A stretch of 35,120 nucleotides of DNA, taken from positions 1 through 35,120 of IMG/VR virus record IMGVR_UViG_3300020043_000969. One strand, 5' to 3'. The notes below the pieces were generated by a model, which was given only the letters and a program-made list of their open reading frames with translations, made no database searches and was not told the DNA's origin. The translations under genes and the position numbers were made by a program. This DNA is from a virus (taxonomy: Duplodnaviria > Caudoviricetes). Position 1 is the first letter of the stretch, and each line of letters opens with the position of its first letter. This document shows positions 3,700-6,770 of the stretch, in pieces.

Positions 3700-3841
3700 T
3701 AAAATTTACTGCATGGATAAATCTTAATCCATAAATGTAGAGTTTTTACAAGGAATGTAGAAATATTTACAAAATGTTGCTTTTTTGCACTATGTTGCGT
3801 TTTTGCAAAGGTGTAGAATAAAAGTCTACATAGGAGAAACC
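3700..3841. promoter_or_regulatory. Divergent promoter region with three TGTA(GA)...(TC)TACA operator-like palindromes
   Basis: TGTAGAGTTTTTACA 3736-3750, TGTAGAAATATTTACA 3756-3771, TGTAGA-N7-TCTACA 3812-3830 overlapping TAGAAT (-10-like) and adjacent to the cro RBS. Confidence 0.65.
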
Positions 3842-4021
3842 ATGACCGCATTTGAAAAACTAATGGCAGAATTTGGCACAATCAAGAATCTATGCCAAAT
3901 CTTAGGGGTAAAGTATGTAACGGCCTATGCCTGGAAGATGAGAAACGGCATCCCTGCTAAATGGCATCAGAAGATCGTAGAAGCCTCGGAAGGTCGTATT
4001 ACTGAGCAAGACCTTGGCTAA
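3842..4021 (+). CDS. cro: Cro/YdaS-like HTH regulator
   Basis: FGTIKNLCQILGVKYVTAYAW...GIP...EGRIT pattern; AGGAG RBS; position at the divergence point. Confidence 0.8.
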   Translation: MTAFEKLMAEFGTIKNLCQILGVKYVTAYAWKMRNGIPAKWHQKIVEASEGRITEQDLG

Positions 4022-4328
4022 TAGCCAAAACAGCCGTACAGTCGCTTTGCTGGAGTCTAGGGGCTATAAGTGTGATGTAGTAGAGTCGTACAATAGCTTC
4101 ACAAGGCGCAAGAAAGACCTATTCCATATATTCGATATATTAGCTATAGGCAATGGCGAAACGGTAGGTGTCCAGATCACTAGCAAATCCAATATGAGCA
4201 GTAGGGTTAAAAAGATTAGCGAGTCTGAATATTTGCCCGAACTCATACGCAGCAAGTGGCGCATCCTTGTTTTGGGCTGGTACAAACAGCCTAATGGCAG
4301 ATGGGCTTGCAAAGAAACCGAGTTGTGA
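4014..4328 (+). CDS. Small PD-(D/E)XK nuclease (Holliday-junction-resolvase / VRR-NUC-like)
   Basis: LESRGY...DLFHIFDILAI...VQIT motif. Confidence 0.7.
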   Translation: MANSQNSRTVALLESRGYKCDVVESYNSFTRRKKDLFHIFDILAIGNGETVGVQITSKSNMSSRVKKISESEYLPELIRSKWRILVLGWYKQPNGRWACKETEL

Positions 4329-4341: not shown

Positions 4342-4533
4342 TTCCTATGTTGGAGGCTCAAACGACATACCAGCGACATAGGGATACAGCGCTACTGGGG
4401 GTAAAGGATGAAACAGCGCAATATAGGTGGCGAAGTTAGTGCCTATTCCTTGAACGACTGACGGGTTCTGTAACTCCGATGGAGCAGATGAAGGCGAATC
4501 TAGGTAGGCTAGGTTCGTTCACCGAAAGAGCAG
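4342..4533 (+). ncRNA. Putative structured ncRNA (five hairpins)
   Basis: Stems 4342-4352/4374-4384, 4389-4393/4415-4419, 4423-4428/4441-4446, 4467-4488, 4493-4503/4509-4519, several with G-U pairs; no ORF. Confidence 0.6.
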
Positions 4534-4550
4534 TAACCTTTAATACTACT

Positions 4551-4875
4551 AAGTCTTATTAAAGACTTGTTAATTATGTATCTCATTAGATACAAAACGA
4601 CAATGCAACTGCATTACTTACAAAATGCCCCGATCAGTAATTTTTGTGTAATTAACTACACTTTTTCTTACATTCTTCCCGATCAGGAAACTTTTTTCTA
4701 CACGCTATATGTGCTAGGTTGCTGTGCAAAAAATCCTGTTAAGTGCATGAATTATCAATAAAAAACCATGCAAAAATGTGACATGGTTGTCCGATATTTG
4801 TATATCTTTTTCGGACATAACAGTCTAAATTTAAACTTTAATACCGACATAAGTATTAAAGAAGTCGTTAATTAA
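4551..4875. repeat. Tandem array of distinct short inverted repeats (operator-like)
   Basis: About 11-12 palindromes of different sequence in ~325 bp; listed in findings. Confidence 0.75.
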
Positions 4876-4888
4876 ACCATTACAATTG

Positions 4889-4957
4889 ATGCGACCCCAG
4901 CCTTGGCGAATACTCTATCTGACTTTGAGTGGTTGGCTAAAGCGCATGGGGTCGTAT
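4889..4957 (+). ncRNA. Long imperfect hairpin (RNA element or leader)
   Basis: ATGCGACCCCA/TGGGGTCGTAT outer stem; TTGGC/GCTAA and TACTC/GAGTG inner stems. Confidence 0.5.
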
Positions 4958-5019
4958 ATACATTGTCTATACAAAAAAACACTTGCACAAATGTAGATTT
5001 GTAGATTAGTATTTAATTT

Positions 5020-6151: not shown

Positions 6152-6387
6152 AAACACTAAAGTGGGTAGGAACTATTCTTTGTTTGTTTGGCATACTGCT
6201 GACTGCACTAAACATCTACCCAGCTAACATTCTTATAGGATTTATAGGCTCTGGCTTGTGGGCTGCGGCTGGATACGCTCAAGACGATATGGCCTTGTTT
6301 ACAGTAGAGATAGTAGCTGTTGCTTTTTACTTTGCAGGCATAGTATTATTTGTAACCAGTCAACTTAATAAGTGGGGGCTTTTATGA
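6148..6387 (+). CDS. Small 3-TM membrane protein
   Basis: Three hydrophobic segments; LKWVGT...NIYP.N pattern. Confidence 0.8.
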   Translation: MKTLKWVGTILCLFGILLTALNIYPANILIGFIGSGLWAAAGYAQDDMALFTVEIVAVAFYFAGIVLFVTSQLNKWGLL

Positions 6388-6770
6388 GTTTTGATGCGTT
6401 GTGGGGGATGTATCCAAGAAAGGTAGCAAAGCGTGTAGCGCAAAAGAGTTTTGAGCGCCTCACACAAGCAGAGCAAGCATTGGCATTAGCAGTAATGCCA
6501 AACCATATTACTTATTGGAAAACGCAGGATACGCAACTAGCGTACATACCGCATTTAGCCACTTGGCTTAACCAGTATCGGTTTGAGGATCAGATTGTCA
6601 TTGAGCCGCCAAAAGTAAACAAGCGACCAGAGTTGCCTTGGTACAGCTCGGAAGAACTAACGATAAAAAAAGCACAAGAGATAGGAGTACAAGCGTATGC
6701 CGGAGAAGGATGGCAGCAATGGAGAGCTAGGATCAGCAATAAGATTAAACAACTCGAAGAACAGCTATAG
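6384..6770 (+). CDS. Replication-initiator C-terminal-domain protein (no N-terminal HTH)
   Basis: FDALWGMYPRKVAK...YIPHLATWLNQYRFED resembles the C-terminal region of lambdoid O / replisome-organizer proteins. Confidence 0.65.
   Translation: MSFDALWGMYPRKVAKRVAQKSFERLTQAEQALALAVMPNHITYWKTQDTQLAYIPHLATWLNQYRFEDQIVIEPPKVNKRPELPWYSSEELTIKKAQEIGVQAYAGEGWQQWRARISNKIKQLEEQL

Follow-up and report, generated by a model that had tools for sequence, protein, structure and literature searches.

The window analyzed here, a complete phage record of 35,120 bp with terminal repeats, carries at 4551-4972 an array of short palindromes. Sequence comparison shows that the array is variable in its units and contains sites that match promoter repeats from four or more toxin-antitoxin (TA) families absent from the phage. 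We consider it highly probable that the units copy TA promoter repeats, and we favor, with appreciably less assurance, a reading in which the array would act as a bare-DNA anti-defense decoy, binding host antitoxins and keeping their toxins quiet during infection. The original prediction, that the sites form a modular set recognized by proteins of the host or of mobile elements, TA regulators among them, is borne out by the density of the dyads, the turnover of units among relatives, and the matches to TA promoters.

A dense array of dissimilar dyads in a variable slot

PHROG matches in the phage include SSB, YqaJ exonuclease, Erf, a Cro-like HTH protein (3842-4021), terminase, portal, capsid, and endolysin. 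Family scans covered 28 and 58 ORFs selected by hand out of 139; none of these belongs to an integrase or antitoxin family, and no toxin-antitoxin pair or complete TA locus was found beside the array sites among the 58. A replication-initiator-like ORF (6372-6770, 132 aa) has a PHROG profile match confined to its C-terminal part, with no N-terminal DNA-binding part seen. The closest cultured capsid is that of Methylophilales phage Venkman (55.6%), and because of this similarity and the Rfam Betaproteobacteria-1 RNA (described in PMC5737381) a betaproteobacterial host is likely. The corresponding locus of Venkman has no such gap, BLAST of the array against 50,697 phage records gave no match, and strict unit patterns occurred in 0 of 201 and 0 of 251 genomes.

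Every palindrome string originally listed for 4551-4972 is present at the coordinates claimed for it. With arms of at least 6 and spacers of up to 20, this region contains 9 perfect dyads, compared with 2.76 ± 1.64 in 500 dinucleotide shuffles, none of which reached 9, so that the predicted excess over shuffled sequence holds. Arms of at least 7 gave 5 dyads vs. 0.84 in shuffles (4 of 500), and the excess was weaker at shorter settings (29 of 500 for arm 6 with spacer ≤5) and for arm 8 (92 of 500); across the other dyad settings, the shuffles equalling the array ranged from 3 to 92 per 500. The array is also the top 422-bp tile genome-wide (9 dyads; runner-up 6; mean 2.0). Several entries of the original list need qualification: CCCGATCAG, TTCCCGATCAGGAA, and TAAATTTAAACTTTA are present but are imperfect dyads, and TTAATTAA is too short to count as a palindrome. 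AACCATG-N11-CATGGTT (unit 7) is lost in most relatives and reads CATCGTT in L005, L010, and L011; it is rejected as a separate unit and regarded as a by-product of two adjacent units. As anticipated, the units resemble neither iterons, being mutually different with no iterated repeat and none invariant, nor CRISPR, as there are no identical repeats with unique spacers and one chance Rfam match falls below the gathering score. An ORF spanning the array (4567-4761) has no recognizable family and is not conserved, and RNA sequencing runs contain at most 7% of the array words, except for one run that is probably DNA. The features of the array and its borders are given in Table 1.

Table 1. Coordinates of the array units and of neighboring features in the window.
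Feature	Position	Strand	Remarks
Betaproteobacteria-1 RNA (RF02932)	4343..4466	+	97.4 bits vs. gathering 49.4; neighbor, outside array
Conserved RNA tail, hairpin ~4490-4525	4467..4533	+	Left border of variable slot; fold z -1.6
Unit 1, GTCTT-N4-AAGAC	4551..4568	.	SdhR-like (host metabolic repressor); resemblance only
Unit 2, TGTATCT-N4-AGATACA	4577..4594	.	Operator-like, TIGR02683/TIGR02684 (RelE/ParE toxin + antidote, HigBA-like) type II TA
Unit 3, AATGC-N4-GCATT	4602..4615	.	Conserved dyad; in 10/39 arrays
Unit 4a	4627..4640	.	First, degenerate site of Y4mF HipB operator-like pair; 49 bp from unit 4b
Unit 5, GTGTA-N6-TACAC	4646..4661	.	Inside spacer of HipB pair
Unit 4b, TTCCCGATCAGGAA	4676..4689	.	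Second HipB operator-like site; matches TTCCCGATCGGGAA at 13/14
Unit 6, TGCATG-N17-CATGCA	4744..4772	.	Operator-like site, one AbiEi clade (type IV TA)
Unit 8, TGTCCGA-N16-TCGGACA	4788..4817	.	Operator-like site, second (DUF6088) AbiEi clade
Units 9-11, AT-rich dyads	4826..4875	.	Dyads
Optional 70-nt hairpin cassette within array	4884..4953	+	Fold z -3.3; besides in L005, L011 only
Unit 12, GTATA-N9-TATAC	4954..4972	.	BrnT-promoter-like, or two HutC-type boxes
Likely early promoter, repeated TGTAGA	4983..5010	+	Read by eye, not called by promoter scan; right border

Eighty related loci were fetched through ORF 4014-4328. In the 46 that have both flanking genes, the interval between these genes varies from 288 to 1433 bp (694 in this phage). 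Units were counted with loose patterns over 39 arrays, i.e., this phage and 38 distinct relative intervals with the RNA tail motif: unit 1 is present in 11, unit 8 in 14, units 2 and 4 in 16 each, and unit 12 in 22; the half-site of unit 6 is seen in as many as 27. The predicted unit-wise gain, loss, and shuffling is apparent, as units appear or vanish singly and unit 6 is reversed in L004 and L028. Contigs from four runs of other studies have joints that skip whole units (4597 to 4954, 4690 to 4954, 4805 to 4954, 4817 to 4954, and 4596 to 4740) alongside one strand switch; these joints were aligned at 85% likeness, several with short sides, and serve as supporting evidence only. Because units are skipped whole and inverted among relatives, they would appear to be orientation-free DNA sites.

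Such units are scarce or missing in many relatives, in some of which an ORF takes their place, and L007, L008, and L066 have an ORF in the slot and almost no units. The slot accepts whole ORFs, either glycosyltransferase-like (PF13712) or DUF268 (L002 3549-4163, L008 3550-4200, and others), and in some relatives ORF and units occur together. Further recurring units that are absent from this phage include TACATAT-N7/8-ATATGTA, GTCAA-N23-TTGAC, GACTCAT dyads, and ACTTTACAA and ACTTTGTTAT repeats (in L010, L011, L014, L025, L028, L031, and L042). L014 has a different hairpin-like cassette (~3990-4080) at the position of cassette 4884-4953.

The suggestion that the array works together with its flanking RNA found no support, as the unit types occur elsewhere in other phages with no such RNA adjoining in the stretches inspected. 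The slot of the RNA and its conserved 65-nt tail (4343-4533) is occupied in more distant relatives (L061, L064, L068-L071, L076-L079) by other sequences that are GC-rich and look structured. At the right border, TGTAGA is found in 36 of the 39 arrays, with copies also near the Cro-like gene, and these repeats are probably the phage's own operator, with the Cro-like protein as its likely owner. The repeats (3736-3830 and 4992-5005) flank both early promoter regions, and the hexamer occurs 81 times genome-wide.

Matches to toxin-antitoxin promoters

Matches upstream of TA operons, as had been predicted, were found before AbiEi-AbiEii, Y4mF HipB, and TIGR02683 loci. The reverse tests, from TA genes back to their promoters, used plasmids and genome samples centered on Acidobacteriota and Bacteroidota. 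Plasmid BLAST of 4530-4990 returned 12 records, four of them on 4780-4822 (unit 8). Three of these four (L086, L087, and L089) have the site directly before an AbiEi-type gene followed by AbiEii, with two copies of the dyad each; in L087 the first gene after the site is annotated as hypothetical. The fourth is an orphan operator at 1501-1534 of Bradyrhizobium plasmid L088, where the related L087 has the whole AbiE operon. The remaining eight records look like chance, and an Acinetobacter plasmid match lay in no TA promoter. In the reverse test, DUF6088 homologs of L277 were examined at seven loci of the viral collection (L646-L652), and the unit-8 site stands just before the start in all 7. 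These correspond to about three independent loci, because the query locus is among them and five others have nearly the same sequence; 19 nt are identical between the phage and these five (L648-L652).

For unit 6, a metagenome scan (3 of 64 parts of the collection) yielded 121 loci, about half of which are matches inside ORFs that look like chance. Among 45 neighbor ORFs scanned (from 71 candidates), six resemble DUF6088 or AbiEi_3_N, with starts at a distance of 24-62 nt from the unit-6 site; one of the six passes the Pfam cut-off. One of these AbiEi-like neighbors led to 40 plasmid records, and in all seven that were fetched (L499-L505) an annotated AbiEii gene follows. When the 7 plasmid AbiEi-AbiEii promoters were scored with a unit-6 profile derived solely from phage arrays, all 7 exceeded the threshold set by 62 AT-rich controls (p = 3e-8), and the exact TGCA-N21-TGCA was found in 5 of the 7 vs. 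0 of 147 control windows; the spacer of unit 6 also resembles that of the plasmid AbiEi promoters. Both units thus have counterparts in an inverted repeat directly upstream of bacterial abiEi-abiEii, and they are best described as operator-like sites of two AbiEi clades, the repeats of these clades being assigned from their position.

The palindrome of unit 4 was found in ~280 viral stretches. Its copies are paired 49 bp apart in 16 of 16 cases among the 39 arrays, and at other viral loci (112 distinct) 14 of 27 second sites lie 49-51 bp away. A viral scan with TTCCCGATCGGGAA gave no owner among 18 neighbor ORFs; the owner came from a HipA search. Strict sites spaced 49-50 bp occur at two of the 31 HipA loci, and a related dyad with a spacing of 41-42 bp at three. 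The four ORFs tested upstream of HipA are TIGR03070 Y4mF antitoxins, and the TIGR03070 gene of L634 has sites 49 bp apart. Five of 14 plasmid Y4mF homologs were fetched; each has three sites at intervals of 48-50 bp, some of them identified by eye, and HipA is annotated adjoining three of the five. In L796, three perfect copies of TTCCCGATCGGGAA, 50 and 49 bp apart, precede hipB-hipA. Repeated dyads at fixed spacing therefore do occur before TIGR03070 genes with HipA downstream, and the CCCGATCAG pair, 49 bp apart, is an apparent copy of the 48-50-bp-spaced sites of Y4mF HipB promoters.

Unit 2 gave 72 viral matches (56 distinct). When 12 neighbor ORFs were scanned, the exact pattern was found before TIGR02683 toxins in L424 and L434, one with a TIGR02684 antidote, and a third match precedes a RelE-looking ORF without an NCBIfam match. 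Among 16 distinct TIGR02683 loci, 8 have GTA-N10-TAC at 9-12 nt upstream of the start (7 of 15 when the discovery locus is set aside), compared with 1 of 217 control windows. A unit-2 profile recovered 2 of 14 TIGR02683 promoters (p = 0.15), which is not significant because the inner letters vary. With its dyad found just before the toxin start, unit 2 is a putative operator-like site of TIGR02683/TIGR02684 TA.

The GntR/HutC reading originally given to the last unit is still tenable, and it now competes with BrnT promoters. Both halves of unit 12 fit the HutC consensus (PMC4494728) in 13 of 19 occurrences, and neither half in four. In the 466 kb of bacterial loci searched, GTATA-N9-TATAC is matched only within two of the 27 BrnT promoters, and the unit-12 profile recovers 8 of 27 BrnT promoters (p = 9e-4) with low scores. 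Unit 12 may thus be either a BrnT-promoter site or a HutC-type site. Unit 1, the sole such dyad in the phage genome, resembles an SdhR site: it agrees with the core of the SdhR palindrome given in the same source at 12 of 14 positions in the phage, and a 13-nt exact core is present in five relatives. Plasmid BLAST found no SdhR-like sites.

Units 3, 5, and 9-11 have no match in the collected TA promoters, and the HicA, Gp49, AbiEi_4, HigB (PF09907), and ParE promoters gave no owner for units 1, 3, 5, and 9-11; HigB promoters have a similar dyad, but with a center of 5 nt, not 4. BLAST of other array alleles or parts against plasmids gave borderline hits only and no TA match, and the five fetched were not TA promoters. 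Five to six units are accordingly without an owner, and the assigned units cover ~125 of 422 bp.

Similar sites in other phages and possible explanations

With the unit-8 arms fixed, viral contigs have a spacer of 12 at 63 loci and of 11 at 27, and 9, 10, 13, 14, and 15 at two to four loci each; at least two of the 63 spacer-12 loci are true TA promoters (12 neighbor ORFs scanned). Six motif families occur in the array, compared with none in 73 of the 75 other genome tiles and one in each of two, a count that is circular for the array itself because the patterns were partly drawn from it. Three or four of the families are reshuffled in other phages chosen by eye (L097, L138, L195, and L452). 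Related phages L195 and L452 have a similar array between DUF6552-like and SprT-like genes, so the position of the array is not fixed. Bacteroidota-like phage contigs, also chosen by eye (L103, L117, L164, and L158), contain tandem copies of three further dyads beside a unit-6 site, and these dyads precede DUF6088 genes in Bacteroidota genomes (L602-L608 and L612). The unit-8 dyad is within long reading frames of unrelated phages L229, L231, L240, L249, L252, and L258, as seen from ORF overlap only, and three phage records of 221-224 kb (L223, L230, and L237) have one unit-8 dyad each, immediately upstream of the start of a gene.

In the decoy reading, multiplying phage DNA would present sites that pull repressors off host promoters, leading to more antitoxin synthesis, and the same sites may hold antitoxins and TA complexes in a protease-resistant state during the shut-down of host expression. 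Each phage lineage would then retain units according to which TA systems its hosts have, with the site for an SdhR-like metabolic repressor possibly riding along. These steps draw on published background. AbiEi represses its own operon through inverted repeats (PMC7319586), derepression of TA operons favors antitoxin synthesis (PMC7167474), with a 21-bp operator present, Lon degrades HipB more slowly, at a half-life of >200 min (PMC3376134), and MqsA is possibly protected by DNA binding (bioRxiv 10.1101/2020.03.02.972737). By inducing phosphorylation of the toxin, type IV antitoxins can silence it (PMC11375011), and therefore more antitoxin would likely mean less active toxin. There are counterpoints to the decoy: derepression raises toxin as well, and in toxin-first systems (units 2 and 12) toxin displaces antitoxin from the operator, with toxin and operator competing for the antitoxin (PMC7167474), so that additional sites could release toxin. 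The evidence against it includes the 2 of 14 profile result for unit 2, the fit of unit 12 to HutC, the metabolic repressor to which unit 1 points, the units without an owner, and the relatives in which the units are scarce or missing.

Some of the same observations could be read differently. Since the end of the array directly meets the likely promoter of ORF 5020, and unit 12 abuts the promoter in many relatives, the array might be a sensor in which bound host antitoxins repress or delay the adjacent early promoter, thereby reporting TA load or stress state. We consider this rather unlikely, as most units are 170-430 bp from the promoter and occur inverted, units recur at other genome positions and within coding frames of other phages, and no integrase that would give a decision to make was found among the scanned ORFs. 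The SdhR-like unit 1 and HutC-like unit 12 would suit a general sponge for host regulators (SdhR and HutC-type together with TA sites), reshaping metabolism or coating and protecting phage DNA and not stopping abortive infection; four of the assignable unit types belong to TA systems, however, and several AbiEi-clade dyads are stacked in a row in other phages, so that this too is unlikely.

That the units are neutral debris, i.e., TA promoters of host islands acquired via Erf/YqaJ recombination at a tolerant slot, would agree with the whole ORFs (DUF268 and glycosyltransferase-like) entering the slot and with minimal alleles that lack nearly all units (L001). It appears very unlikely given that the units are trimmed to dyads without TA coding sequence, that arms and exact spacing are kept while spacers vary, and that unrelated phages carry the same set. 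A replication origin or DNA-entry signal made of AT-rich dyads is suggested by the base composition (34% GC), a nearby turn in GC skew, and the replication-initiator-like ORF at 6372-6770. No unit is invariant, though, several relatives retain only ~25 bp plus an ORF, there is no iterated repeat, and the AT-rich first 30 bp are the sole possible candidate; since units are lost singly and inverted, an invariant origin is excluded, and an origin or entry signal of any kind seems highly improbable. The antitoxin decoy remains our preferred reading. A broader version of it, which we hold tentatively and at somewhat under even chances, is that phages of several host phyla use a protein-free, modular anti-defense, in which TA operators are collected even inside coding frames and amplified phage DNA would stabilize antitoxins, leaving abortive infection silent.

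Significance and comparison with known systems

If true, the decoy would be a bare-DNA form of anti-defense that is invisible to gene-based searches. The broader version would further imply that many TA systems sense infection via the loss of operator DNA, and that the arrays are an inventory of the TA systems with a genuine role in phage defense. The arrays may bear on whether and how chromosomal and plasmid HipBA, HigBA-like, BrnTA, and AbiE systems act against phage: if selection maintains the operators, their identity would point to the TA families of importance in nature. The array further yields candidate operators for several antitoxin clades.

A literature search, covering titles and abstract openings and few subscription papers, retrieved no report of phage arrays of TA operators. 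The closest published case found is the pseudo-ToxI repeats of phage PhiTE, which counter abortive infection (Blower 2012, PMC3475682). Both are non-coding phage sequences that mimic a TA component and change by repeat gain and recombination. Pseudo-ToxI, however, is expressed as an RNA antitoxin and is directed at one type III system, whereas the array appears to consist of DNA sites that are orientation-free and relate to several systems of types II and IV, with escape from them a proposal. The tandem direct repeats in a single orientation that mark an RNA mimic were not found here, as the units are mutually different and inverting.

Similar to the type IV AbiE/MenAT promoters (Beck 2020, PMC7319586), where long inverted repeats stand just before abiEi-abiEii, units 6 and 8 appear to copy such repeats, but the array has them without an adjoining TA gene and in the company of sites from other families. 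The hipBA operon (Hansen 2012, PMC3376134) likewise has several dyads before a HipB-type gene, and its operator DNA slows HipB decay; unlike the E. coli hipBA operator TATCC-N8-GGATA, unit 4 fits the Y4mF subfamily TTCCCG-N2-CGGGAA, 48-50 bp apart. T4 Dmd (PMC7167474) resembles the proposed decoy in being a phage counter-measure to more than one TA system, and the two differ in that Dmd is a protein antitoxin, whereas the array is DNA.
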